From the NCBI GenBank assembly GCA_963713545.1, contig CAVQME010000001.1, forward strand, positions 130,809-194,808: a stretch of 64,000 nucleotides of DNA, in the 5' to 3' direction. Positions 923-55,013 of this stretch are shown here, one piece after another. Under the pieces are notes generated by a model. The model saw only the letters and a list, made by a program, of their open reading frames with translations, ran no database searches and was not told where the DNA came from. Source of the stretch: an uncultured Actinomycetes bacterium (lineage in GTDB: Bacteria > Actinomycetota > Thermoleophilia > RBG-16-64-13). Position numbers and translations under genes: made by a program. The stretch's first letter is position 1, and the number at the start of each line of letters is the position of its first letter.

Positions 923-1879
923 CTACTCTCCCTTAAGCTTCAGGTTGTTCTTCTCGAGGCGCTCGCGCACCTCTTCTATCGTCTTGCGGCCAAGATTGGG
1001 GATGCACATGAGCTCCTGCTCAGACTTCGCGATCAGGTCACCCACCGTCTCGATACCCTCGCGCTTGAGGCAGTTGTAGGAGCGCACTCCCAGCTCCAGC
1101 TCCTCGATGGGAGTGTCGTCCACGCCCGAGGGGCGGCCCAAAAGGACTTCTGTCTGCCCGGCCCCGGACTCAGGGCCGAACTCGTCCTCATCCTCGCTCC
1201 CATCCTCCAGGAAGATCGAGAGGTCGTCGCGCAACAGAGCCGCCGCCTTGGCCAGCGCGGCTCGCGGCTCGATGGCGCCGTTGGTCTGCACCTCGAGGGT
1301 CAGCTTGTCAAAATCGGTCCGCTGGCCCACTCGCGCCGGCTCCACGCTGTAGGCCACTTTTGTGACCGGGGAAAAGATCGAGTCCACCGGGATGACTCCC
1401 AAGATGGTCTCGGCCGGCTTGTTGTCGTCGGCCGACACGTAGCCCCGACCCCGGCGGACGGTCAACCGCATCTCGAGCCGGCCCCCGTCCTCGAGGGTGC
1501 CGATGTACGCAAGCGGGTCCACGACCTCGACGGTGGCAGGAAGCTGAATGTCGCCTGCTGTGACGATCCCCGGGCCGTCCTTGACCAGCTCGACCTCATG
1601 CTCGTCGTCCTCGCCGTGGAGCACGAAGACTATCTTCTTGAGGTTGAGGATGATGTCGGTCACGTCTTCCTTGACGTGAGGCACGGTAGAGAACTCGTGT
1701 TCTACCCCGGTGACCTTGACCGCCGAAATGGCGGCACCTTCCAGCGAGGAGAGCAAGACCCGGCGCAGAGAGTTTCCGAAGGTGTACCCGAAACCACGGG
1801 CCAGCGGCTCTACGACGAAGCGGCCTTGATTCTCACCGACTGGTTCGTAGGCGCTGTGCGGGGTGGCAAAATCTAACAA
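923..1879 (-). CDS. rpoA: DNA-directed RNA polymerase subunit alpha
   Basis: 318 aa. N-terminal domain motifs (GNSLRRVLLSS) and the alphaCTD (LSVRSYNCLKREGIETVGDLI...IPNLGRKTIEEV) are present. It sits in the alpha-operon context. Confidence 0.95.
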   Translation of the reverse strand: MLDFATPHSAYEPVGENQGRFVVEPLARGFGYTFGNSLRRVLLSSLEGAAISAVKVTGVEHEFSTVPHVKEDVTDIILNLKKIVFVLHGEDDEHEVELVKDGPGIVTAGDIQLPATVEVVDPLAYIGTLEDGGRLEMRLTVRRGRGYVSADDNKPAETILGVIPVDSIFSPVTKVAYSVEPARVGQRTDFDKLTLEVQTNGAIEPRAALAKAAALLRDDLSIFLEDGSEDEDEFGPESGAGQTEVLLGRPSGVDDTPIEELELGVRSYNCLKREGIETVGDLIAKSEQELMCIPNLGRKTIEEVRERLEKNNLKLKGE

Positions 1880-1892
1880 TCCGGCCTCCTAT

Positions 1893-2519
1893 CTACTTGG
1901 AGTACAGCTCGACGATGAGCGACTCCTGGATGGGGATGTCGATATCCGCCCTATCGGGCTGACGAAGGACCTTGCCCACCATGTTGTCGTGGTCGGCCTG
2001 CAGCCACGCAGGCACAGAGGCCGTGAGGTCGGTGGCATCCTCGACGACGGTCTTAAGACCCTCGCTGTCGAGCACCGCGGCGATGATATCGTCGGTCTTG
2101 ACCTTGTACGACGGGATGTTGACCCGGCGTCCATTGACCGTGAAATGGCCGTGCCGGATGAGTTGTCTCGCCTGCCGGCGGGACGCGCCGAAGCCCAGAC
2201 GATAGACGACGTTGTCCAGGCGCAGCTCGAGCAGGCGCAGCAGGTTCTCGCCGGTGATACCCGACTGCCTGGCGGCCACCTCATAGTAGTTGCGGAACTG
2301 CCCTTCGAGCACCCCGTAGTAGCGGCGAGCCTTCTGCTTCTCACGTAGCTGGGTGAGGTACTCGGACTGCTTGCGCCGCCGTCCCCGGCCGTGTTCGCCC
2401 GGAGGATACGCCCGCCGATCGACGCCGCACTTGTCGGTGAGACACCGCTCACCTTTCAGGAAGAGCTTCTCGCCTTCACGACGGCACTGCTTGCACTGGG
2501 GGGATCTGTCTCTTGCCAT
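1893..2519 (-). CDS. rpsD: 30S ribosomal protein S4
   Basis: 208 aa. It begins [26 protein letters not shown]..., including the zinc-finger-like N-terminus. Confidence 0.95.
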
Positions 2520-2534
2520 GATCGCCGCCCCGCC

Positions 2535-2942
2535 CTAGACCCGGCGCCGCTTCTTGGGGCGGCAACCGTTGTGGGGGATAGGAGTCACGTCCTTGACGCT
2601 GGTCACGTCGAGCCCGGCGGCCTGAAGCGAGCGGATGGCGGTCTCGCGGCCACTACCCGGTCCCTTCACGTAGCAGTCCACTTTCTGCAAGCCGTGCTCC
2701 ATAGCGGCCCGCGCGGCTCGCTCCGCCGTCACCTGCGCAGCGAACGGAGTCGACTTGCGCGAACCTTTGAACCCGGCCGAGCCGGCGCTTGCCCAAGCGA
2801 TCACGTTGCCCTCTTTGTCGGTGAGGGTCACAAGAGTGTTGTTGAACGACGTCTTGATGTAAGCGTTGCCCACCGCGATGCTCTTGCGCACCTTGCGGCG
2901 CCGTCCCTTCGGACCGGCGGTAGTGCGTTTGGGTTTCGGCAT
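2535..2942 (-). CDS. rpsK: 30S ribosomal protein S11
   Basis: 135 aa. It contains [18 protein letters not shown]...[14 protein letters not shown]. Confidence 0.95.
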
Positions 2943-2989
2943 GTCTCCTTAACTCCGTCCCTAGATATCCCTGCGAGGCAGCCGACAGG

Positions 2990-3367
2990 CTAGACCCGCA
3001 CCTTCTTCTTGACGCCCACTGTCGGCTTGTGCCCTTTGCGCACCCGGGCGTTCGTCTTGGTGCGCTGGCCACGGACGGGCATGCCCCGCCGGTGTCTGAT
3101 GCCCCGGTAGCAGCCGATCTCCATCAGTCGCTTGATGTTCTGGCCGCGCTCACGCCGCAGGTCGCCCTCGACCAGGACGTTGTCCTCGATGTAGCTACGC
3201 AGCCGGATCTCCTCGTCTTCGGTAAGGTCCTTGACGTGCGTGTCTGGATCGATCTTGACAGCGGAGAGGATCCTGTTGGACATTGATCGGCCGATCCCAT
3301 AGACATACGTGAGACCGATCTCGATCCGTTTCTCCCGGGGGAGAGTGACACCAGCGATACGAGCCAT
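2990..3367 (-). CDS. rpsM: 30S ribosomal protein S13
   Basis: 125 aa. It begins [26 protein letters not shown]. Confidence 0.95.
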
Positions 3368-3446
3368 ACGCTACTCCTGCCTCAATAGGCTGCTGAATGA
3401 TGAAGTTGCGCCGTCAGGGCGCGATCGGCGAGCGCGAAAGTAGGAG

Positions 3447-3522
3447 GCAGGGAGCGTCCGTAGCAGCGCTACGGGCGTGACCGAGGACGAACTATCGCGC
3501 CGCCCAGTGCGTACTGATGGCC
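3447..3522 (+). repeat. ~77-nt structured repeat element, copy A (rpsM-rpmJ spacer; plus-strand sense, antisense to the operon)
   Basis: ggcagggagcgtCCGTAGCagcGCTACGGgcgtgaccgaggacgaactatcgcgccgcccagtgcgtactgatggcc. It is ~85% identical to the reverse complement of 13927..14004. Confidence 0.6.
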
Positions 3523-3546
3523 GTGGCTTCATTGTTCGGCAGCCTC

Positions 3547-3660
3547 CTAACCTTGCCGCTGCTTGTGGCGCGGGTTCTGGCAGATCACCAGGACCACGCC
3601 CCGCCGCCGCACTATCTTGCACTTCTCGCACATCGGTTTGACCGACGCTCTGACTTTCAT
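3547..3660 (-). CDS. rpmJ: 50S ribosomal protein L36 (zinc-binding type)
   Basis: Not in the ORF track. Manual translation of the minus strand gives [37 protein letters not shown] (37 aa). It lies between infA and rpsM as expected. Confidence 0.85.
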
Positions 3661-4765: not shown

Positions 4766-5428
4766 CTATTCCTCGGCCGGACCGAGAGCTGCGCGTATGT
4801 CTTCGTAGACCTTCTCCGGTGACTGGGCGCCGTCGACGCGGGTCACCAGCCCGGCCTGATCGTAGTAGTCGATGAGCGGCTCGGTCTGGTTGCGGTACAC
4901 CTCGAGCCGATTGCGCACGGTGGCTTCAGAGTCGTCATCACGCTGATAGAGCTCTCCGCCACACTTGTCGCACACGCCCTCCTTCTTGGGCGGGTTGAAC
5001 ACCACGTGGAAAGGAGCCTGACAGACCCGGCAGATGCGGCGCCCGCTGAGGCGGCGCACCAACTCCTCTTCGTCCACAAGGACGACGACGGTCTTCGTCA
5101 CTGCCCGGCCCAGGCCGTCCAGGGCGGCGTCCAGCGCCTCCGCCTGCGGGATGGTCCGGGGGAAGCCGTCCATCAGGAAGCCCTTGGCGGTGTCCGACTC
5201 CTGCAAGCGATCCTTCACTATGCCGATCACCACGCTGTCGGGTACCAGCTCGCCGGCGTCCATGTATTTCTTGGCTTCCAGACCCATCTGCGTCTGGTTC
5301 TTGACTGCCCCGCGCAGGATGTCGCCGGTGGATACGTGAGGAATGCCGTATTCCTCCACGATGCGTCCGGCCTGGGTCCCTTTGCCCGCGCCGGGCGGTC
5401 CGAGCAGAATGAGATTGAACTGGCTCAC
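4766..5428 (-). CDS. adk: adenylate kinase (Cys4 zinc-lid type)
   Basis: 220 aa. It has the P-loop GPPGAGKGTQ and the lid CRVCQ...CDKCGG. Confidence 0.93.
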   Translation of the reverse strand: MSQFNLILLGPPGAGKGTQAGRIVEEYGIPHVSTGDILRGAVKNQTQMGLEAKKYMDAGELVPDSVVIGIVKDRLQESDTAKGFLMDGFPRTIPQAEALDAALDGLGRAVTKTVVVLVDEEELVRRLSGRRICRVCQAPFHVVFNPPKKEGVCDKCGGELYQRDDDSEATVRNRLEVYRNQTEPLIDYYDQAGLVTRVDGAQSPEKVYEDIRAALGPAEE

Positions 5429-7382: not shown

Positions 7383-7931
7383 TCACTCTCCGGTCCCGGC
7401 CGCGGCCGGCGCCGGTTCGTCGACCGGGCCCATGCCCAGGATCTCCCGCACGGTCTTGCCGCGCTGCAGGGCGATGTCTTCGGGCCGGCGCAGGGCGCGA
7501 AGCCCCTGCTCGGCGGCCCGCACCATGTTGATGGGGTTCGTGGTGCCCAGGCACTTTGTCAGGACGTCGTGGACCCCACCCAACTCGAGCAGCGCGCGCA
7601 CCCCGCCGCCCGCAATCACTCCCGTCCCCGCAGAAGCCGGTCGCAGTAGCACCCGCCCGGCGCCGTGATGACCCACGATCTCATGGGTGATGGTGCTCCC
7701 GTGCTTGGGCACGACGAACAGGTTCTTGCGTGCGTCTTCTATGGCCTTCTGGATCGCCAGCGGCACCTCTTTGGCCTTGCCGTAGCCGATGCCCACCGTG
7801 CTCTCTCCATCGCCGACCGCGACGAGAGCGGTGAACGAGAAGCGCCGGCCACCCTTGACCACCTTGGCCACGCGGTTGATGTGGATCACGCTCTCCTGAA
7901 GGTTAAGCGAATCTGCCTTGATCTGCGCCAA
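7383..7931 (-). CDS. rpsE: 30S ribosomal protein S5
   Basis: It contains [25 protein letters not shown]. The ORF track extends it to a GTG at 7979, which would overlap rplR by 29 nt. A TTG at 7931 is preceded by GGGAGAGAGAGG and gives an [22 protein letters not shown]-terminus, so 7931 is the preferred start. Confidence 0.88.
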
Positions 7932-7950: not shown

Positions 7951-8307
7951 TCAGAAGTCCAGGCCGCCCTCGCGGGCACCGTCCGCCAGAGCTTTTACTC
8001 GACCGTGATACAGGTAAGGTCCCCTATCGAACACCACGCGGCCCACGCCGGCGGCTTTGGCTCGCTCTGCGAGGATCGCCCCGACCTTGGCCGCTTGGTC
8101 TTTCTTCGACAGATCCTTCTCGGTGACGTGTATGCTGCCGGCGCTGGCCAGCGTGCGTCCGGTCCCGTCGTCGATGACCTGAGCCCAGATAGCCCGGTTG
8201 GATCGGAACACGGACAGACGCGGACGATCGGCAGTACCGCGCACCTTGCTCCGCACCCGGGTGGCGCGCCGCGCGCGAGACCGGTTCTTGTCATCCTGAT
8301 AACTCAT
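7951..8307 (-). CDS. rplR: 50S ribosomal protein L18
   Basis: 118 aa. It contains [18 protein letters not shown]. Confidence 0.93.
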
Positions 8308-8317
8308 CTGATCCTCT

Positions 8318-8851
8318 CTACGCCCGCTTGCCCACTTTGCGCCGCACCACTTCGCCTTCGTAGCGAATGCCCTTGCCTTTGTAGGGCTCGGGCTTGCGGA
8401 GGGCGCGGATCTCGGCCGCTACCTGGCCGACGCGCTGCTTGTCGATGCCCCTGACCACGATCTGCGTAGGAGTGGGCACCTCGAACTCTATGTTCTCCGG
8501 GGGAGGTACCACCACCGGATGAGAGTAGCCGACAAGGACCTCCAGGTCGGAGCCTTTCTTGGAGGCCCTATATCCGACTCCCACGATCTCCAGCTTCTTC
8601 TCGAAGCCCGTGGTCACACCGGTGACCATGTTGGAGAGAAGCGTACGGGTTAGGCCGTGCAGGGAGCGGTTCGGCGCTGTGTCGTCGGGCCGGGCGACGG
8701 ACATGATGCCGTCCTCCAGGGTCACCTGCATGTTGGGGTGGACGTCCCGGCTCAGCTCCCCTTTGGGGCCCTTGACCGCGACGTTGTTCCCGGCGATCGT
8801 GACTTCAACGCCGCCGGGTACTGTTATTGGTGCTCTTCCTATCCTAGACAT
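8318..8851 (-). CDS. rplF: 50S ribosomal protein L6
   Basis: The true start is the internal [15 protein letters not shown]. The longer ORF-track start would overlap rpsH. Confidence 0.92.
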
Positions 8852-8855
8852 ATCG

Positions 8856-9254
8856 TTACCAGACGAAACAGATGACTTCGCCGCCCACACCCTGCCGCTG
8901 CGCCTCCCGTGCGGTCATCAGTCCATGCGAGGTGGAGATGACGGCCGTACCTAGGCCCCCGAGGACCTTGGGGAGGTTGTCTTTCTTGGCGTAGATGCGG
9001 CGGCCCGGCTTGCTGACCCTCTTCACCTGCGAGATGACGCGGCGACGGCCGTCAGTGTACTTGAGCTCGATCACCAGTTTGTCGAAGCTGCCCTCTTTGA
9101 CTACCGAGTAGCCGGTGATGTAGCCCTCTTCCTTCAGGACGCGAGCCAAGTCCACCTTCTGGCTCGAGGAAGGCATCTCGACCGACGCATGGAGCGCCTT
9201 GTTGGCGTTCCGGATGCGGGTAAGCATATCGGCGATGGGATCTGTGTGTGACAT
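8856..9254 (-). CDS. rpsH: 30S ribosomal protein S8
   Basis: 132 aa. It begins [20 protein letters not shown]. Confidence 0.95.
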
Positions 9255-13876: not shown

Positions 13877-13926
13877 GTGTCTCTTACCGCGTCCCTTCTA
13901 CGATGGGTCGCCTCAGGCCGACGATT

Positions 13927-14004
13927 CGGCCGCCTAGTCTGCACTGGGCGGTGCCATGCGTCGTCCTCAGTCGCGCCCGTAGCGCTGCCACGTTCGTTCC
14001 CTGC
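13927..14004 (-). repeat. ~77-nt structured repeat element, copy B (rplW-rplB spacer; minus-strand sense, same sense as the operon)
   Basis: Minus strand reads cgcagggaacgaacgtggcagcgctacgggcgcgactgaggacgacgcatggcaccgcccagtgcagactaggcggcc. The hairpin CGTRGC-agc-GCTACG is conserved with a G-U-compatible change. Confidence 0.6.
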
Positions 14005-14064
14005 GTCCCAGCCTCGCCCGCGCCCATCGCATCCTGTCTGCGAATAGTCATCCTTCACCAACCC

Positions 14065-14349
14065 TTACGTCGCGCCGAAGAACTCGATCCGGTTGCCCGG
14101 GGCGAGTTCGACCACTGCCTTCTTCCAGCGCTTGGTCACGCCCACATGGGCGCCCCTGCGCTTGGGTTTCGGCTTCATGTTGATCGTCTGCACGCCGATG
14201 ACCTTGACGTTGAAGATCTCCTCCACCGCGGCCCGGATATGGGGTTTGGTGGCCCGGTAGTTCACCTCGAACGAGTACCGGTTGCTGTCGACGGCCCGGT
14301 AGCTCTTTTCGGAGATGATGGGACGGATGATGATCTGCCGCGCGTCCAC
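14065..14349 (-). CDS. rplW: 50S ribosomal protein L23
   Basis: 94 aa. It contains IIRPIISEKSYRAVDSNRYSFEV. Confidence 0.92.
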   Translation of the reverse strand: MDARQIIIRPIISEKSYRAVDSNRYSFEVNYRATKPHIRAAVEEIFNVKVIGVQTINMKPKPKRRGAHVGVTKRWKKAVVELAPGNRIEFFGAT

Positions 14350-31990: not shown

Positions 31991-32066
31991 TGGCAGGGCA
32001 GGAGGGATTCGAACCCCCAACATCCGGTTTTGGAGACCGGCGCTCTACCGTTGGAGCTACTGCCCT
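31991..32066 (-). tRNA. tRNA-Trp (CCA anticodon); 3' CCA is encoded
   Basis: Cloverleaf read from the minus strand: acceptor AGGGCAG/CTGCCCT, anticodon loop cuCCAaa, T-loop GGTTCGAATCC. Position between rpmG and secE is canonical. Confidence 0.85.
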
Positions 32067-32092
32067 ACGCCTAGCCTTGTCCCGATGCCGGA

Positions 32093-32242
32093 CTATTTGG
32101 TCTCCTTGTGGGCCGTCACCGTATCGCACCACTTGCAGTACTTGCGCAGTTCGATCCGTTCGGGGTCGTTGCGCTTGTTCTTCATGGTCGTGTAATTACG
32201 GCGCTTGCATTCTTGGCAGGCCATCGTTACCCGTACCCGCAT
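32093..32242 (-). CDS. rpmG: 50S ribosomal protein L33 (zinc-binding type)
   Basis: Not in the ORF track. Manual translation gives [49 protein letters not shown]. Confidence 0.85.
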
Positions 32243-32294
32243 TACTTCACCACTCCCTAGTCATTAAACGCCCGTGCATGCTACCACAAACACA

Positions 32295-32371
32295 GGTAGC
32301 GGCGAGAGGACTCGAACCTCTGACACGCGGATTATGATTCCGCTGCTCTGACCGACTGAGCTACGCCGCCC
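32295..32371 (-). tRNA. tRNA-Met (CAT anticodon; elongator-like, G1-U72)
   Basis: Acceptor GGCGGCG/CGCCGCT, anticodon stem-loop GCGGAauCATaaTCCGC, T-arm AGAGGttcgagtCCTCT. Confidence 0.8.
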
Positions 32372-32376
32372 CGTCA

Positions 32377-32452
32377 TGGAGCCCCCACTCGGATTTGAAC
32401 CGAGGACCCCTTCCTTACCATGGAAGTGCTCTGCCAACTGAGCTATGGAGGC
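32377..32452 (-). tRNA. tRNA-Thr (GGT anticodon); 3' CCA is encoded
   Basis: Acceptor GCCTCCA/TGGGGGC, anticodon loop cttccatGGTaaggaag, T-loop GGTTCAAATCC. Confidence 0.8.
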
Positions 32453-32510
32453 CCGTCGCGCCGGCTCCCCGCCGGCCGCTACTCCGGCCACAGCCACCGG
32501 CGGATCGTGA

Positions 32511-32597
<87 letters not shown>

Positions 32598-38363: not shown

Positions 38364-40889
38364 TCAGCCCTCCCATTTTTCGATCTCGATGAGGCACGAA
38401 TTGGGCGTCATTCCCGGCGCGTTCTTGGAGGTCATGCGCGACGGGGTGAGCATGCTGACGCACCCGCCTTTGTCCATGGAGTCCGCCTGGCCTGGGATCA
38501 GGGGATCGTAGAGGGCCGACGAAGCGTAGGAGTGGACGATGCCGGGACGGACGCGTCCGGTGACCACCGCGATGCAGAGCACAGAAGCGCGGTCGTTGTA
38601 GAGACGGACGATGTCGTGGTTGTTGATCCCCCGCTTGGCGGCGTCCTCGGGGTTGAGGCGGGCCGGCCACCAGGCGTAGCCGTCCTTCTTGATCCGGTGA
38701 CCGGGTATGTCGTTCAGCCAGTCGGTGTGCTTGTCGTAGTGGCAGTGGAACGTGAACCGCGGGTGAGGGGAGAGGAGCTGCAGCGGGTATTTCTCGAAGA
38801 GCTCGGTAGTGTGGTGCCCTTCCCAGCTGGGGATGTAGCGCGGCACCACCGGCCGCTCGTCGTCGTCGGGGAAGTACTGTTTGAGGCTCACCGACTCGAA
38901 CTCGATCTTGCCGCTGAAGGTGCCCAGCTCACCGCTCTTCTCGGTGAGGCGCTTGGGGTTGCCCAGATCCGGAGTGTCACAGGGCCGCCCCTCGTAGAAC
39001 CAGCGCATGCCCGGCGTCGGCTTGTAGTCGTCGTTGATGTTGATGATGTGATAGCCCTTACGGTTGAACTCCTCCCAGCTGATGTCTTTGGGCAGGTCGG
39101 AGATATCGAAGAAGGCTTTGACCCAGTCGACCTCAGTCTTGCCGCCGTCGGTGTACTCGTCTCTCAGGCCCATCTTCTCGAAGATGAGCGCGAAGATCTC
39201 GTAGTCCGACTTGGATTCCCACAGGGGCTCGATGCATTTCTGCTCGCGCACTATGACCCGGTAGTCGCACCCGCTGCTGGCGTGAACTGTGTAGCCATTG
39301 ATGGCAGCCCACTCGCCCATGTCGTCGCGCTCGAAGTTGGTGCAGGCCGGGAGGATGACGTCGGCCATACGGGTCTCGCTGTTGTACCAGATGTCCTGGT
39401 TGACCACGAACTCGAGCTTGGGACTCTGGTACATCCGCACCCACTTGGTGGTGTCGCTCATGGTGCCGATGAACGAGCCACCGTAGCGGTACCACAACTT
39501 GATCTCGGAATAGCCCTCCATGGGGTAGTCGAAATGCATGAACTGCTGCTCCAGGCTCCGGCCGCAGAAACCTTCCCCATACCACTCCACCGGCGGGTCC
39601 AGGATCGCCTCGGGCACAGTCAGCCGCCACAAGCGCTGTTTGGTCGTGTTCACCGGGATGTACTTGCACGCCTTCGTAGACATGGATATGCGGGCTTCCG
39701 GCTCGCCGTAGCTGGGGACCCACCGGGTGGTGTCGGACGGCGCCCCCATGGTCGTGCCCCAGATGCTGCGGCCCGGGGCACCCAGCCCCTGCATGGCCTG
39801 CAGAAGCACCATCATGCGGGCCCATTCGGTGCCGTAGGCTTCCCGGCAGGCGCCGCCTTCCCCTCCGCGCGAGCCGCCCGACAGGATCGTGCGCTTGGCG
39901 GCCCATTCGCGAGCGAGGGTGCGGATCACGCGGGCTTCGATGCCACACTCCTCGGCAGCCCACTCAGGCGTCTTGGGCTGACCGTCGACCTCGCCCACGA
40001 CGTACTTCCTGAACTCCTCGAACCCGATGGTGCGGTTCGCGACGTAGTCCTTGTTGTAGGTGCCCTCGGTGATCCAGACGAAAGCTATGGCCATGGCCAT
40101 GGCAGTGTCGGTGCCCATCCGCGGGGTGATCCACTTACCGCCCATGACGGCGTTGGTGTAGTTGTAGAAGGGGTCGATGAAGACCATCTTGACGCCCTTC
40201 TCCTTGAGCCACTGGCGCCATAGAGCGGAGTCCTGGCCGGAATAGGTGCCGCGGGTGCTATCTGGGTCGTTCGACCAGTAGACGATCATCTCCGCGTTCT
40301 GCAGGGCGTCGCCCAGCATGTCGTAGGGCTCAGGCATGCCCAGCCGCCAGAAGAAGCCGTAACTGTGCGTAGCTCCCCAGTGCCACCCCTCCCAGCTGTC
40401 GGGGTTGTCCAGTACCGGAGTGCCTTCCATCATGTTCAGAAAACGGGCGAAGGGTCCCATCTTGTAGCCGACGATGCCCCAGTTGTGGTGGGAGGAGGTC
40501 ATGCCGCTGATGGCCGACCCGCCATAGGTATCTTTGACCCGCTTGAGCTCGCTCGCCACCAGGGTCGCGGCCTCGTCCCAGGAGATTCGCTCGTAGCGTG
40601 ACTTGCCCCTGTTCTGAGGATTGCGCTCGCCGTTCGGATCGAAGTCGACCCGTTTCATGGGGTACTTGATGCGCTCGTCGGAATAGATCCGGCGGCGTTC
40701 GGCGTGGATGTAGGGTGAGAGGGTGACTTTCTTCGGAGGCGAGTAGCTCTTGCCCCCGGCCTCGATCACCCAGGGCTTCATGTCTTTCTCGTCCACCACC
40801 AAGGGACGGACCCTCGTGATCTTCCCGTCCTTGACGTAGACAGAGACCGGCCCGCTGTTGGTGCAACTCGCGAAAACCTTTTCAGCCAT
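38364..40889 (-). CDS. molybdopterin (bis-PGD) oxidoreductase large subunit, pyrogallol-hydroxytransferase/transhydroxylase-like; no N-terminal FeS Cys motif and no Tat signal
   Basis: 841 aa. Its motifs match the PHT alpha subunit as remembered: RISWDEA, NPDSWEGWHWG, ILPACTNFER, CGMT at the C-terminus. There is a single Cys in the N-terminal 60 aa and no RRxFLK. Confidence 0.85.
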   Translation of the reverse strand: MAEKVFASCTNSGPVSVYVKDGKITRVRPLVVDEKDMKPWVIEAGGKSYSPPKKVTLSPYIHAERRRIYSDERIKYPMKRVDFDPNGERNPQNRGKSRYERISWDEAATLVASELKRVKDTYGGSAISGMTSSHHNWGIVGYKMGPFARFLNMMEGTPVLDNPDSWEGWHWGATHSYGFFWRLGMPEPYDMLGDALQNAEMIVYWSNDPDSTRGTYSGQDSALWRQWLKEKGVKMVFIDPFYNYTNAVMGGKWITPRMGTDTAMAMAIAFVWITEGTYNKDYVANRTIGFEEFRKYVVGEVDGQPKTPEWAAEECGIEARVIRTLAREWAAKRTILSGGSRGGEGGACREAYGTEWARMMVLLQAMQGLGAPGRSIWGTTMGAPSDTTRWVPSYGEPEARISMSTKACKYIPVNTTKQRLWRLTVPEAILDPPVEWYGEGFCGRSLEQQFMHFDYPMEGYSEIKLWYRYGGSFIGTMSDTTKWVRMYQSPKLEFVVNQDIWYNSETRMADVILPACTNFERDDMGEWAAINGYTVHASSGCDYRVIVREQKCIEPLWESKSDYEIFALIFEKMGLRDEYTDGGKTEVDWVKAFFDISDLPKDISWEEFNRKGYHIININDDYKPTPGMRWFYEGRPCDTPDLGNPKRLTEKSGELGTFSGKIEFESVSLKQYFPDDDERPVVPRYIPSWEGHHTTELFEKYPLQLLSPHPRFTFHCHYDKHTDWLNDIPGHRIKKDGYAWWPARLNPEDAAKRGINNHDIVRLYNDRASVLCIAVVTGRVRPGIVHSYASSALYDPLIPGQADSMDKGGCVSMLTPSRMTSKNAPGMTPNSCLIEIEKWEG

Positions 40890-42030: not shown

Positions 42031-44658
42031 ATGACGGACGAGGGACGCAAGAAGGTCGATGTAAGCGTCGATAAGACAACGATCAAGAACTTGGCGATGG
42101 GCGGCCTGCTCGGTGGCGGCGGAGAGTGCTTCGTCGACGTCAAAGACGGCAAAGCCGTCCGGATCAGACCCTTCAAGTACGACTGGAAGTACGACTACGA
42201 CAAGCTGAACCCGTGGAAGATCGAACGTAACGGTGAGACCCTGGGTCCCCTGCCCAAAGCTCTGCCCGCGCCCTTCTCGCTCGCATATAAGAAGCGGACC
42301 TTCTCCCCGAACCGCATCAAGTTCCCCATGAAGCGGGTCGACTGGGACCCCGACGGCGAGAGGAACCCGCAGAACCGGGGCAAGAGCAAGTACAAGAGGA
42401 TCTCCTGGGACGAGGCCACCGACCTCATCGCAGCCGAGATCAGGCGGATCCACAAGGAATACGGGCCGCTCGCCATCCTTGCCCAGGGTGACGGTCACGG
42501 CGAGAACAAGACCATCCACACGCCCCACGGCCACCAGGCGCGGCTTCTCGACATGATGGGCGGCTTCACCCAGCAGGTCCGTAACCCGGACAGCTGGGAG
42601 GGCTGGTATTGGGGCGCCAAGCACGTCTGGGGCCAGGGCTTCCAGGGCATGATGTCTCCGGCCCAGAACCTCATCAAGGACATCTCCGAGAACTGCGACA
42701 TGGTCCTCAAATGGGGCTGCGACGAGGAGACCACCCCCTGGGGATTCACAGGGCAGTACGCCAGCCGGATCTCCCAATTCTGGACCCGGGCCGGCATCAA
42801 GCAAGTCTACATCTGCCCCGACCTCAACTATGCCGCCGCCGTTCACGGCGACAAATGGATCCCGGTGCTGCCCAACACCGACGCGGCTCTCCAGTTGGCC
42901 ATAATCTATGTGTGGCTCACCGAGGACACCTGGGACAAGGAGTACGTCGCCACCCACGCGGTCGGCATGGACAAGATCGCCGACTACGTCCTCGGTAACG
43001 ATGAAGAAGGCATTCCCAAAACCCCCGAGTGGGCTTCGAAGAGATGCGGGGTGCCCGAGTGGACCATCAAGGCCCTCGCCCGGGCGTTCGCCAAGAACAC
43101 CACGTCGATCATCCACTACTTCGGTGGCTCGGCTTTCAGGGGCCCGTACTCGCACGAACCGGGCCGGCTGGAATGCGTCCTCCTCGGCATGCAGGGCCTT
43201 GGCGGCCCGGGTGTCCACCAGTGCCAGATGACCTACTTCGGCATGCCGAGGGCGGAGGGACTAGGCAGCGTGCGCTTCTTCAACCCCGAACTGCCGGAGC
43301 GCCTCACGAAGCCCTGCTGGACCACGGTCCACGCCTGGGGCCCGCAGCTCATCCCCAAGACCCTCATCCAGGACGCCATCCTGAAGGCCCCGCTGGTCTT
43401 CTACGGCAGCGGCGGCCAGGAGTGCCAAACCGAGGAGCAGTTCGACCGCTACACCTATCCCATCGCGAAGGAAAAGGGCGGCGTCCCCATCCACATGATC
43501 TGGACCGACACGCCGTGCCGCATCACCTGCTGGAATCACGGCAACTGGACCATCGAGGCCATGAAGGACCCGAGCATCGAGTTCGTCCTCGCCCAGCACC
43601 CGTGGCTCGAGAACGACTGCCTCTACGCCGACATCATCCTACCGGCCAACACCACCCTCGAGGTCGAGGACATCGTCACCACGGTCCGGCAGGGCCCGCA
43701 TTTCGCAAGCGTCTCGATCCAGGAGCAGTCCGTCCTCCCCATCGGCGAGTCGAAGAGCGACTACGAGATCGTGCTGGCGGTCGCCGACAAACTGGGCATG
43801 ACCGAGGAGTTCACCGGCGGTCTCTCCACCCTCGACCTGCAGAAGCTGGTCTTCGACGCCATGAAGATGGACAAGCTCACCACCTGGGAGGACTTCTACG
43901 AGAAGAAGACCTACGTGTACGCGACCGCTCACGACTGGGAGCAGGACCCGCCCGGCTTCCGCCTGTTCTACGAGGACCCGAAAGCCAATCCACTCAAGAC
44001 CCCGAGCGGCCTTCTCGAGTTCTATTCAGAGCGTTTGGCGCAGCACTTCCCCGACGACAAAGAACGCCCGCCGTTCCCGAAGTGGGTCCCGAAGGGCATC
44101 ACGCACGACGAGGATCTTTCGAGCGAGCGGGCCGACATGTTCCCCTTGCTTCTCATGTCCAACCACCCGCGCTGGCGCACCCACGCTCAAGGCGACGATA
44201 TCAGCTGGGCCAGGGAGACTCCCACCGGCAAGGTCCTGGGCTTCGACGGCTACAGGTACGAGCCCATCTGGATCAACCCCATCGACGCCGAGGCCCGCTG
44301 CATCAAAGACGGCGACGTGGTCAAGATCTTCAACGAGAGGGGCATCGTGCTCGTCGGCGCGCGTGTGTGGGAGAGGATCAGGCCCGGCGTGGTCTACGTG
44401 GACCACGGTGCTCGCCATGATCCCCTGGTCCCGGGCAAGGTGGACCGGGGCGGGGCCATCAACACGATCGCTCCGAACGGGCTCACCTCAAAGAACGCGT
44501 GTGGCCAAGCCACCAGCGGCTACCTGGTCGACGTGCAGAAGGTCAAGAACGAGGAATGGGAAGCATGGCGTAGGGACTACCCCGAAGCTTTCGCCAGGGA
44601 ATACGACCAAGGCGCCGGACTGCGCTTCGACGCCTGGATCGAAGGAGGCAGGGACTAG
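42031..44658 (+). CDS. molybdopterin (bis-PGD) oxidoreductase large subunit, second pyrogallol-hydroxytransferase-like paralogue (cytoplasmic; no FeS motif, no Tat signal)
   Basis: The ORF-track start at 41962 has no usable RBS. The ATG at 42031 has AAGGA 13 nt upstream and gives MTDEGRKKVDV.... It shares DPDGERNPQNRGKSKYKRISWDEA, NPDSWEGWYWG and ILPANTTLE with 38364..40889. Confidence 0.85.
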   Translation: MTDEGRKKVDVSVDKTTIKNLAMGGLLGGGGECFVDVKDGKAVRIRPFKYDWKYDYDKLNPWKIERNGETLGPLPKALPAPFSLAYKKRTFSPNRIKFPMKRVDWDPDGERNPQNRGKSKYKRISWDEATDLIAAEIRRIHKEYGPLAILAQGDGHGENKTIHTPHGHQARLLDMMGGFTQQVRNPDSWEGWYWGAKHVWGQGFQGMMSPAQNLIKDISENCDMVLKWGCDEETTPWGFTGQYASRISQFWTRAGIKQVYICPDLNYAAAVHGDKWIPVLPNTDAALQLAIIYVWLTEDTWDKEYVATHAVGMDKIADYVLGNDEEGIPKTPEWASKRCGVPEWTIKALARAFAKNTTSIIHYFGGSAFRGPYSHEPGRLECVLLGMQGLGGPGVHQCQMTYFGMPRAEGLGSVRFFNPELPERLTKPCWTTVHAWGPQLIPKTLIQDAILKAPLVFYGSGGQECQTEEQFDRYTYPIAKEKGGVPIHMIWTDTPCRITCWNHGNWTIEAMKDPSIEFVLAQHPWLENDCLYADIILPANTTLEVEDIVTTVRQGPHFASVSIQEQSVLPIGESKSDYEIVLAVADKLGMTEEFTGGLSTLDLQKLVFDAMKMDKLTTWEDFYEKKTYVYATAHDWEQDPPGFRLFYEDPKANPLKTPSGLLEFYSERLAQHFPDDKERPPFPKWVPKGITHDEDLSSERADMFPLLLMSNHPRWRTHAQGDDISWARETPTGKVLGFDGYRYEPIWINPIDAEARCIKDGDVVKIFNERGIVLVGARVWERIRPGVVYVDHGARHDPLVPGKVDRGGAINTIAPNGLTSKNACGQATSGYLVDVQKVKNEEWEAWRRDYPEAFAREYDQGAGLRFDAWIEGGRD

Positions 44659-45570: not shown

Positions 45571-45655
45571 TATGAGAGGGGGCAAACGGGTTCCCCGGAA
45601 GAGTCGCGCAGGCTTTTGCGCGCAGCTGGAGGGGGATCCGTTTGCCCCCTATCTT

Positions 45656-52793: not shown

Positions 52794-55013
52794 ATGGGAA
52801 AGAGAGAAATCGTTTATTCAACGTGTAAGAGCTGCCACGGCGGCTGCGGCGTCAAGGTGACCAAGGAAGACGGGGTCGTCGTCCATATCGAGGGCAACCC
52901 CAACTCCCTCACCGGGGGCACGATGTGCTCCAAGGGCCTCTCGAGCATCCAGCACATCGATAACCCCTACCGAATCAAGTACCCCATGAAGCAGGTGGGA
53001 AAGAAGGGAACGGGCAAGTGGAAGAGGATCTCGTGGGACGAGGCTCTCGACACGATCGCCGACAAGATGAAGGCCGCCATCGCCGACCCGGGGCCGCAGA
53101 CCATCGCCATCTCTCAGGGCACAGGGCGCGGGTACAACCGCTACACCATGCGGCTGGCGCGTTCCCTGGGCACCGGCAACGCCATCACGCCGGGCTACGT
53201 GTGCCACAGCCCCCGCCTGGGACTTTACGCTCTGGTCACCGGATACGGGCGGCTCTACTGTGACTACCACGGCTGGGGCGGCGAGTTCCCGAAGACCCAG
53301 ATCATGTGGGCGAAGCAGCTGGAGATCAGCAGCGCCGACTCCGAGATGGGCTACTGGTTCATGCGTTCCGTGGACTACTGCAAGAACCTCATCATCATCG
53401 ACCCCCGAGCCAGTGCCTATGCCACCCGGGCGAGCCTCTGGATACAGCCGCGCCCGGGCACCGACTGCGCCCTCGCTTTGGGCATGATGAACGTTATCGT
53501 CGAAGAGGAGCTCTGGGACAAGGAGTTCGTCGACAACTGGACCTACGGCTTCGACGAGCTGCGCGAGCGAGTCAAGGACTTCACCCCTGAGAAGGTCTCC
53601 GACATCTGCTGGATCCCCAAGGAGCAGGTCATCGAAGCCGCCCGGATGTGGGCCGTCGACACGCCCGGCTGCATCCAGGTCGGCAGCTCGCTCGAGCGGC
53701 AGGCCAACTGTGGCCACACCCTTCGAGCCATCACCTGCTTAATGGGGCTCGCCGGCAACATCGAGCGCCCGGGCAGCATGATCAGCTGGGTGCTCCCGGA
53801 CACCGGCCTCATCGAGGACTTCAACCTCGAACTGCCCATCACCGACGAGATGAAGGCGAACATCATCGGGGGCGACCGGTTCAAGATGGGCGCCACCCGC
53901 ACGTGCAACCCCGACACGATGGTCAAGAAGCTCCTTGCAGGCGATGCGCCCATCAAGGTGTGGTTCAGCGTCGGCGGGCAGCAGATCGTCCATATGGCCA
54001 ATACGAATGAGGTCGTTGCGGCCATCGAAAAGGTCGAGTTCATGTCGCACACCGATCTCTTCATGGGCCCGATGGCCGAAGCGGCCGACATCGTCCTCCC
54101 GGCCGCCCACTGGCTGGAACTTGACGACGTCTACGACATGCACCCGCGCTTCATGATCGAAGCTCACAACAAGGTGGTCGATCCGCCCGGGGAGGCCAAG
54201 TCCGACGCCTGGATCTTCAACGAGGTCGGGAGGCGAGTCGTGCCCGACAAGTGGTGGCCCACAGTCGAAGACATGCTCGACTACCAACTGAGAAGGGGCG
54301 AAGCCCCGGACGGCGGCCCGCTGAAGTGGAAGGACTTCAGCGAGAAGCTCGTGAGCGGCTGCTGGGGCCCCGATCAGGTGTATTACAAGTACAAGACCGA
54401 TTTCTGGAGAGAGGGCGGCGGCTTCCCCACCCCGTCCGGCAAGTTCGAGTTCAAGTCCCAGCACCTAGAGTCCCTCGGGTACGACGGGCTGCCGGTCTTC
54501 ACGGAACCGGGCGAGAGCCCCTACTCCACCCCCGAGTTGTTCAAGGAATACCCCATCGTGATGAGCAGCGGCTACCGCCAGCCGTTCTACTTCCTCGGGC
54601 AGTACCGCAACATCCCCTGGCTGCGTAGCTTCATGGAGTTCCCGACCTGCCAGCTCCACCCGGAGACAGCCGCGCTGTACGGCGTCGAGGACGGCGATAT
54701 CATCTGGATCGAGTCGCCACGCGGGAGGATCCGCCAGAAGCTGCGGACGTTCCCTGGTATCAAGAAGGACGTCCTCATGGCGACCGCCAACTGCTTCTAT
54801 CCGGAGGAACCTGCCGAGGGCTACCACGGGGTGTTCATCTCCAACCCGAACGTGCTCACCAGCAACGACCACCTCGATCCGATGTACGGCTCGCCAGACC
54901 TCACCTGCCTGATATGCAAGGTCTACAAGGCGAAGGACGAAGAGTTGCGGGAAGAGGTCTTTCGCAGTGAGGAGTACGGCTTCGTTCCAACCAGTATGAT
55001 GCAGGACGTCTAG
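52794..55013 (+). CDS. molybdopterin (bis-PGD) oxidoreductase catalytic subunit with an N-terminal 4Fe-4S Cys motif and no Tat signal
   Basis: ~739 aa. It begins MGKREIVYSTCKSCHGGCGVKV...GGTMCSKG (Cx2Cx3C...C) directly after the Met, so there is no room for a twin-arginine leader. GAGGAG sits 6 nt upstream of the ATG. TTG 52791 is an alternative start. Confidence 0.85.
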   Translation: MGKREIVYSTCKSCHGGCGVKVTKEDGVVVHIEGNPNSLTGGTMCSKGLSSIQHIDNPYRIKYPMKQVGKKGTGKWKRISWDEALDTIADKMKAAIADPGPQTIAISQGTGRGYNRYTMRLARSLGTGNAITPGYVCHSPRLGLYALVTGYGRLYCDYHGWGGEFPKTQIMWAKQLEISSADSEMGYWFMRSVDYCKNLIIIDPRASAYATRASLWIQPRPGTDCALALGMMNVIVEEELWDKEFVDNWTYGFDELRERVKDFTPEKVSDICWIPKEQVIEAARMWAVDTPGCIQVGSSLERQANCGHTLRAITCLMGLAGNIERPGSMISWVLPDTGLIEDFNLELPITDEMKANIIGGDRFKMGATRTCNPDTMVKKLLAGDAPIKVWFSVGGQQIVHMANTNEVVAAIEKVEFMSHTDLFMGPMAEAADIVLPAAHWLELDDVYDMHPRFMIEAHNKVVDPPGEAKSDAWIFNEVGRRVVPDKWWPTVEDMLDYQLRRGEAPDGGPLKWKDFSEKLVSGCWGPDQVYYKYKTDFWREGGGFPTPSGKFEFKSQHLESLGYDGLPVFTEPGESPYSTPELFKEYPIVMSSGYRQPFYFLGQYRNIPWLRSFMEFPTCQLHPETAALYGVEDGDIIWIESPRGRIRQKLRTFPGIKKDVLMATANCFYPEEPAEGYHGVFISNPNVLTSNDHLDPMYGSPDLTCLICKVYKAKDEELREEVFRSEEYGFVPTSMMQDV

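Follow-up and report, generated by a model that had tools for sequence, protein, structure and literature searches.

A probable MITE-like palindromic repeat in two ribosomal-protein operon spacers of an uncultured Thermoleophilia bacterium

The stretch of DNA analysed here (the window; 64,000 nt of contig CAVQME010000001.1, from an uncultured Actinomycetes bacterium of the Thermoleophilia) carries on its minus strand a ribosomal-protein cluster in which the rpmJ-rpsM spacer is 179 nt long and the rplW-rplB spacer 188 nt. Nearly all of each spacer is occupied by one copy of a repeat unit of about 165 nt, without an open reading frame (ORF) of its own, at 3386-3549 on the plus strand (copy 1) and at 13899-14067 on the minus strand (copy 2); this repeat, probably a mobile element resembling MITEs, the miniature transposable elements with inverted repeats, is the subject of the present analysis. 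Copy 1 lies between rpmJ upstream (L36; 3547..3660, minus strand; PF00444, with the canonical 37-aa L36 translation) and rpsM downstream (S13; 2990..3367, minus strand; PF00416), the Shine-Dalgarno sequence of which, AGGAG, is outside the hairpin described below. Copy 2 lies between rplW upstream (L23; 14065..14349, minus strand; PF00276) and rplB downstream (L2; 13043..13876, minus strand; PF00181/PF03947), all four identities being based on Pfam marks on identical proteins. The sense strand of the element runs against the operon in copy 1 (antisense) and with it in copy 2, which confirms the opposite orientation pointed out in a sequence-only reading of this DNA.

That reading had also held that the two spacers share a repeat, and this is borne out far above chance: a hidden Markov model (HMM) of the family recognizes only two places in the window, with E-values of 1e-42 for copy 1 (HMM positions 3-168) and 3e-36 for copy 2 (next independent hit, E > 2), and an inverted-repeat search recovered arms of 128 nt at 3388-3515 / 13936-14063 (75% complementary), the second-longest inverted repeat of the window. 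The unit of ~77 nt first proposed, however, is about half of the true length, and its identity is 80.5% (62/77) rather than ~85%, with about 71-77% over the whole unit (pairwise alignment of the two spacers gave a mean column identity of 77%). Copy 2 is older and more decayed than copy 1.

Copy 1 forms a near-perfect hairpin of ~160 nt (3387..3545, plus strand; 63 pairs, 11 of them G-U), with flanking TA dinucleotides at 3386-3387 and 3548-3549, the latter being also the TA of the rpmJ stop codon TAG (3547..3549, minus strand), which is part of a CTAG in empty alleles. At its tip stands an 11-bp stem with an AGC triloop (3454..3478, plus strand; GCGTCCGTAGC-AGC-GCTACGGGCGT), a helix that covaries across the family, and beside it are the two halves of a conserved, purine-rich internal loop: the 5' half at 3442..3453 (plus strand; reading AGGAGGCAGGGA, family consensus AAGGACGCAGGGA) and the 3' half at 3479..3490 (plus strand; GACCGAGGACGA, family consensus GACYGAGGACG). 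The corresponding parts of copy 2, all on the minus strand, are the apical stem-loop at 13973..13997 (ACGAACGTGGC-AGC-GCTACGGGCGC, including a G-U pair) and the loop halves at 13998..14009 (5'; GGGACGCAGGGA) and 13961..13972 (3'; GACTGAGGACGA); its flanking TA dinucleotides are at 13899-13900 and at 14066-14067, the latter inside the rplW stop codon TAA. Both features noticed earlier, the CGTRGC-AGC-GCTACG hairpin and the outer GGGCG/CGCCC pairing, are present, but only as the tip of a single ~160-nt hairpin, and the G-U-compatible A>G change ascribed to copy 1 does exist but sits in the rplW-rplB copy (CGTGGC...GCTACG).

The predicted folding energy of copy 1 on the plus strand (3387-3545) is -107 kcal/mol (z = -7.4; 0/200 shuffles fold as well), compared with -75.7 for its complement, and that of copy 2 is -73 on the minus strand versus -64 on the plus strand; because one strand folds better in each copy, the element has a polarity. 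RNAalifold analysis of 44 diverse members gave 44 consensus pairs, 30 of which show double compensatory changes. The sequence-only reading had named as its own refutation a motif found hundreds of times without conservation of structure, and the copies do number in the hundreds, but their structure is strongly conserved in this way. Across the family the arms are always inverted repeats, and conservation peaks in the interior rather than at the termini, the outer ~12 nt of the arms differing between subfamilies through compensatory substitutions. Members chosen by the arm segment alone contained 50 distinct apical stems (median 11 bp, plus triloop), and the loop halves beside the apical stem, AAGGACGCAGGGAG and GCGACYGAGGACG, are constant while the helices covary.

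The pairing favours one strand. Across all copies there are 661 G·U against 73 A·C oppositions, G·U exceeding A·C in 118 of 122 copies, and the apical stems alone have 51 against 3. Among common states, 21 columns have frequent G·U and three have frequent A·C, whereas rare states are symmetric (50 G·U, 66 A·C). The pairing bias is inherited, not maintained in each copy; we infer that single copies decay neutrally and that the multiplying lineages are constrained, or mutationally biased, on one strand. Since pairing is of the one-strand type (G·U, not A·C) and the interior loop, not the termini, is conserved, propagation seems to include a single-stranded DNA or RNA stage, and the copying or moving step probably involves the sense strand in that form.

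Comparison of contigs encoding an identical RpsM or an identical RplW (L-numbers are labels of the compared contigs and loci) revealed that both sites are occupied in some strains and vacant in others. At the rpsM site the filled spacer of 179 nt is found in L001, L003, L004, L007 and L008, and an empty spacer of 13-16 nt in L002, L005, L006 and L009 (for example, GGC-TAG-GAGGCGGGAGTAGCGT-ATG). At the rplW site the empty spacer has 24 nt (L014 reads GACG-TAG-AAGAAGGG), a short form without the apical ~67 nt has 122 nt (L010, L013, L015 and L018), and the full form has 188-191 nt (the window, L011, L012 and L019). The short form L010 and the empty L014 are 99-100% identical in the flanking rplW and rplB, and the window and L012 are 97-99% identical in these genes, but only 80% in the element. 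Because close relatives have the same sites empty or filled, both copies are insertions; and because the element of L012 differs so much more than its genes do, the rplW stop codon has been occupied more than once. TA (up to CGTAG) is single in the empty rplW allele, whereas the filled allele has it at either side of the element: L019 reads GACGTAG[...]ATCGTAG-AAGGG, a duplication of TA (up to CGTAG) compared with the empty L014.

Short forms of 75-120 nt recur elsewhere (L090:1126-1200; L104:~5170-5250 and ~7700-7782; L010:1786-1907), and several of them have the look of deletions between the element's two GACGC direct repeats. A further insertion in a ribosomal operon, the third, was found in a related MAG (metagenome-assembled genome), L130 (MELN01000020.1, Actinobacteria bacterium RBG_16_64_13), at 2022-2190 in the sense orientation. 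It abuts the TAG stop of an ORF aligned to window 8318-8890 (rplF by position); its junction corresponds to window 8275-8313, by position rplF-rplR, where the spacer of the window is only 10 nt.

The ends of the element are mainly of two types, A, (C)TA-RCAGGCTGYTGARGAATGACGC...CAGCCTSC-TA(G), and B, TA-AGAGCTCGKTTCGGAATGAC...CGAGCTC; a number of other types exist, that of copy 2 (GGGTTGGTGAAGG) among them. Of 113 copies, 51 (45%) have TA at the 5' boundary and 68 (60%) have it at the 3' boundary, as against 14% in control windows, and many of the boundaries without TA belong to copies abutting another copy. The targets deduced are CTAG (17), CTAA (8) and CTAC (3), and the left and right NTAN agree in 16 of 37 copies, where 9.2 would be expected (p = 0.004). 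The duplication therefore measures 2-4 bp, TA included, on the strength of the enrichment of TA flanks and the excess of equal NTAN.

Of 107 non-identical full copies, 43 (about 40%) have a terminal TA(R) that serves as the in-frame stop of an adjoining ORF with a coding-type GC content at third codon positions, and the orientation relative to the stop-sharing gene is random (21 genes read into the 5' end of the element and 24 into the 3' end). Both window copies are situated at stop codons: that of rpmJ, a TAG within a CTAG site, and that of rplW, TAG/TAA. The element inserts at a TA within (C/G)TAG or CTAA, leaving TA on both sides (a duplication of 2-4 bp), and the left TA with the first base of the element (G or A), or a 4-bp duplication, preserves a TAG or TAA, so that termination of the upstream gene is retained and the downstream Shine-Dalgarno sequence is left outside the hairpin. 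Folds in the mRNA sense likewise predict the downstream Shine-Dalgarno sequences to be largely unpaired, not sequestered. As TA-containing tetranucleotides are concentrated at stop codons in a GC-rich genome, the targets are largely stop codons, and because insertion leaves the stop intact, the element can be accommodated in essential operons in either orientation. The location in highly conserved operons, described earlier as unusual, is simply explained by the targeting of TA at stop codons.

In the mRNA sense, the right junction at the rpsM site is ...GCAGCCTATTGAGGCAGGAG in the window, and L001 has ...CCTCATGAGG and L130 has ...CCTACTGAGG at this place. A reconstruction by TA duplication with the present right flank was discarded, the empty allele that it predicts, GCAAGGNTANTGAGGCNGGAGTAGC, having 0 hits in metagenome contigs. 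An alignment read by eye, in which the right-hand copy of CTAG has lost 2 nt, fits better, and by their sequences the junction variants look like one event. The exact breakpoint is ambiguous because the target (CTAGGAGGC) and the element terminus (CTAGGAGGCTG) share a nine-base similarity.

The copy at the rpsM site seems to have travelled between lineages. The window and L130 agree in 97% of the positions of this spacer, whereas the flanking genes are 84-90% identical and their third codon positions 58-79%. The tract of high identity (3304-3573, ~270 nt, 97% identical overall and 93-100% per bin) extends ~27 nt into rpmJ and ~60 nt into rpsM, outside which the two are about 63-90% identical per 30-nt bin, and in L002, a much closer relative (94-96% identical), the site is empty. 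The simplest account of these alignments would be that diverged lineages exchange the filled rpmJ-rpsM allele, the conserved flanks allowing homologous recombination; a possible alternative is that copy 1 is under purifying selection.

The size of the family was estimated by scanning a species-representative genome collection with a 19-base core pattern, and the counts rest on the matches listed. At least 119 genomic stretches match the pattern, and nearly all real members among the matches listed are in MAGs that bear a Thermoleophilia, Gaiellales, Actinomycetota or Actinomycetes label. The single 4.6-Mb contig JAOSKU010000001.1 supplied about 50 of the fetched loci, and MELN01 and CAWDXC01 are further carriers of the family; the samples behind these contigs are from wetland, sediment or soil. 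An nhmmer search with the family HMM gave 198 hits in the fetched loci, 122 of them full length; the 4.6-Mb MAG carries at least 78 copies, and a scan of metagenomes by the conserved arm segment gave at least 120 loci. Searches of PLSDB plasmids and of viral contigs recovered no copies, and literature searches did not find the family described.

Several arrangements on JAOSKU010000001.1 deserve mention. Copies of subfamily B form tandem arrays with a period of ~164 nt, and tandem or composite loci are L109 (~2640-3040), L030, L047, L076, L020, L032, L065, L081, L131 and L135. A recurrent composite consists of the left arm of one copy, a complete B copy, and then the core and right arm, the join always being just before GGACGCAGGG. 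In L078 and L104 (2304001- and 2944001-), two distant loci, an element copy has identical flanks (cagggcatctccgagcccctCTAGGAGGCTGC), which may reflect a segmental duplication or an assembly artefact. Some introns home beside terminator-like stem-loops, and the placement of a group II intron in L123 (505-2645; contig positions 3328001-3336000) recalls these: it splits one element copy between AAGGACG and CAGGGAGCG, carries a reverse-transcriptase/maturase-like ORF at 1093-2505 (plus strand), and is inserted, on the antisense strand of the element, 8 nt downstream of the apical hairpin.

With a probability of roughly 0.7, we interpret both spacers as copies of an undescribed, non-autonomous, palindromic, MITE-like mobile element of ~160-165 nt, comparable to the Correia and ERIC elements. 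Measured against the classical definition of bacterial MITEs (PMC3184786), the repeat is small (~165 nt, against an upper limit of about 400 bp), non-coding and dispersed in many copies (the HMM hits above); it is present or absent in close relatives at both window sites; and it is flanked by target-site duplications, as seen at the rplW site and in the enrichment of boundary TA, with a degenerate right junction at the rpsM site. Its decay is also typical of MITEs (copies that are nested or in tandem, and short forms produced when the sequence between direct repeats is deleted). The earlier suggestion of a small mobile or REP/MITE-like repeat is accordingly supported, by the polymorphism at both sites and by the hundreds of dispersed, TA-flanked copies.

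The two window copies would be passengers, co-transcribed in the operon mRNA and there forming a very stable hairpin, from which intrinsic termination is not expected because a U-tract is missing. By analogy with Correia and ERIC, such hairpins may be substrates of RNase III/E and modulate mRNA processing, although nothing points to selection of the window copies for this role. Movement would need an enzyme supplied in trans.

Correia elements are known for a TA target duplication. Like the present element, those of Neisseria (also NEMIS or CREE) are of about 100-160 bp, non-coding and present in hundreds of copies; their inverted-repeat arms give long mRNA hairpins co-transcribed with neighbouring genes, full-length and internally deleted forms coexist, strains differ in presence and absence, and the cognate transposase is not known (PMC3184786, PMC10969869). 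The two share no sequence similarity and belong to different phyla, and Correia elements differ in having conserved 26-bp terminal repeats, promoters and an IHF site, in place of the variable termini, constant interior loop, strand-biased pairing and lack of a promoter consensus seen here. The ERIC/IRU elements (127-bp imperfect palindromes of enterobacteria, with ERIC-like elements in Photorhabdus and Xenorhabdus) resemble ours in being imperfect palindromes over their whole length, in lying in transcribed intergenic regions and at gene 3' ends in either orientation, in the 5'-TA-3' motif at both termini, and in possible orientation-dependent effects on mRNA (PMC3184786); again there is no sequence similarity, the phylum is different, and our element is larger, with a constant asymmetric purine-rich loop and far more G·U than A·C. 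The likeness to both families is thus functional only, all listed hits being in Actinomycetota MAGs and none in PLSDB. As for possible sources of the enzyme, IS630 duplicates TA in CTAG and IS5 duplicates YTAR, and MITEs of the IS630/Tc1-mariner and IS5 types share with our element the preference for CTAG/CTAA and the TA or NTAN duplication. Unlike them, it has no insertion sequence (IS) with matching ends among the loci fetched, and its terminal nucleotides are not conserved, which would be unexpected if a DDE transposase recognized them.

Several observations weigh against the MITE-like interpretation. No transposase, no same-ended IS and no RAYT-like gene was found in the ~1.7 Mb of fetched loci. 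A search for solo terminal repeats outside the known copies gave two hits, both a chance match or a short form; the only split copy enclosing a gene was that of the group II intron; the multi-copy ORFs across the fetched loci were orthologues only; and the ORFs between inverted copies and beside arm-only fragments were ordinary, metabolic- or regulatory-looking genes (those between copies being judged from their translations, not by HMM search). The tandem copies of subfamily B are joined by linkers of 5-6 nt without TA. At the rpsM site, a simple TA/CTAG duplication fails to rebuild the empty allele CTAGGAGGCGGGAG, and the additional 2-nt loss is needed. Finally, a classical MITE would be expected to show the opposite of what is seen here, where the interior is conserved but the outermost ~12 nt of the arms are not, and strand-specific G·U pairing is unexpected for an element moved by double-strand cut and paste.

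The last two features and the missing transposase leave room for a possible, though rather unlikely, explanation in which the sense strand, as single-stranded DNA or RNA, is recognized through the constant purine-rich loop (AAGGACGCAGGGAG / GCGACYGAGGACG) between covarying helices, so that the family would represent a previously unrecognized, strand-specific class of structured mobile elements instead of conventional double-strand MITEs. If so, an enzyme not yet linked to such elements would integrate it at the TA of stop codons by a single-strand mechanism so far undescribed at this element size, and the element would be a giant REPIN-like or RNA-templated replicator of the Thermoleophilia.

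A related explanation, which we consider unlikely, is that the hairpin is moved as single-stranded DNA not by a DDE-type enzyme but by an HUH/Y1 enzyme of the REPIN/RAYT or IS200/IS605 kind, which would recognize the folded sense strand and its interior loop and cut at the tetranucleotide at the stem foot. The one-strand bias in pairing (over all copies and in the apical stems), its presence in inherited variants and absence from rare ones, the freedom of the termini to covary around fixed interior motifs, and the conserved (C)TA(G/A) at both stem feet are all in its favour. REP elements and REPINs are moreover hairpin-forming extragenic repeats of hundreds of copies with a tetranucleotide at the stem foot, in tandem and clustered arrangements, of which the fold of one strand is presumed to matter. 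However, REPs measure 20-40 bp and have tags of GTAG or CGTC (PMC3733652), and REPINs are doublets of such units, whereas our element is a single ~160-nt hairpin, 4-8 times the REP length, with CTAG/CTAA flanks. The TA of the rplW site, single in the empty allele and doubled in the filled one, is a duplication, which elements derived from IS200/IS605 do not make, and the orientation by replication strand expected of these was not apparent either: in the 4.6-Mb MAG there is no orientation bias relative to GC skew (about 11+/18- versus 14+/16- events, a comparison of low power). No Y1- or RAYT-like gene was seen between or beside the copies of the fetched loci.

It is distinctly improbable that the sense strand is a functional structured RNA (a dispersed noncoding RNA family or a cis-acting module) whose copies are mobile by coincidence; for copy 1 the product would be an RNA antisense to the rpmJ-rpsM junction. 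The constant purine-rich internal loop between covarying helices, the prevalence of G·U over A·C, the very stable fold (z = -7.4) and the 97% identity of the rpsM-site element between lineages whose flanking genes are about 85% identical would be in keeping with such a role. As would be expected of a recombination tract, however, this identity continues into the coding sequence on either side, for about 27 and 60 nt. The copies are dispensable in near-identical strains, and rare variants break the pairing symmetrically, so that individual copies are not maintained. No promoter consensus was found in scans of the element and no terminator-like site on either strand, and the orientation relative to adjacent genes is random. 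No Rfam family matches: at gathering thresholds, the only hits in the window were four tRNAs (a cluster of four tRNA genes at 31994-32595, minus strand), and a permissive search of both spacers gave noise (E = 4.3 and 9.6). The covariance-model check proposed with the sequence-only reading thus came back negative, and its suggestion of an antisense small RNA is disfavoured by the missing promoter and terminator consensus, the random orientation (21 versus 24) and the want of pairing upkeep in single copies; that of a protein-binding DNA site is conceivable for the conserved interior loop only.

That the copies are autoregulatory leaders of ribosomal-protein genes, or operon-specific mRNA regulators selected at the two junctions, is hardly credible. 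Both are located in spacers of ribosomal-protein operons, and the rpmJ-rpsM junction is the place of the S4-binding alpha-operon leader in Gammaproteobacteria; but the copies are oppositely oriented, both sites are empty in strains with identical proteins, the same element stands beside unrelated genes hundreds of times, and no leader family of Rfam gives a covariance-model match, so that this explanation is already contradicted. Lastly, although the genome is GC-rich and many short repeats of the window are chance matches, a chance or low-complexity origin of the similarity is already refuted by the HMM E-values (1e-42 and 3e-36), the z-score of the fold (-7.4) and the hundreds of homologous copies with compensatory changes.

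Three other candidates were tried and rejected. A C/D-box reading arose from a weak Rfam hit (E = 4.3). In an integron attC site, the motifs R''(RYYYAAC)...R'(GTTRRRY) would be in the reverse order to the GTTGAAG...CTTCAAC of subfamily A, subfamily B has no such motifs, and the copies are dispersed in both orientations, unlike cassette arrays of one orientation. An intrinsic terminator is contradicted by a GC-rich hairpin without a trailing U-tract and the lack of a terminator-like site on either strand.

The window contains other repeats. Its longest inverted repeat is at 40536-40691 / 42295-42450 (156 nt, 73%), and a 63-nt direct repeat (76%) is at 42378-42440 / 53006-53068; these repeats of the 40-53 kb region probably reflect paralogous genes. 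A further inverted repeat at 45574-45653, with 37-nt arms, a 6-nt gap and 76% complementarity, is unrelated to the hairpin family.

The anomalous length of two spacers within the genome's most conserved operons can thus be explained without regulation, and structured, covarying intergenic hairpins in this setting are repeats, not candidates for riboswitches or leaders. MITE-type repeats are hardly documented in Actinomycetota, and Actinobacteria go unmentioned in a 2024 review of prokaryotic MITEs (PMC10969869). The family appears undescribed; as selfish DNA it is of a familiar kind, although some of its features are atypical. Its variable termini, constant interior loop and one-strand bias do not fit the textbook MITE and make it a testable case for a single-stranded intermediate, and the presence and absence states of the element may be used as strain markers in metagenomes. 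In short, a selfish element can colonize essential polycistronic operons harmlessly by landing on the TA of a stop codon in such a way that the stop is retained, and the filled allele, once established within ultra-conserved genes, seems to pass from one diverged lineage to another through homologous recombination.

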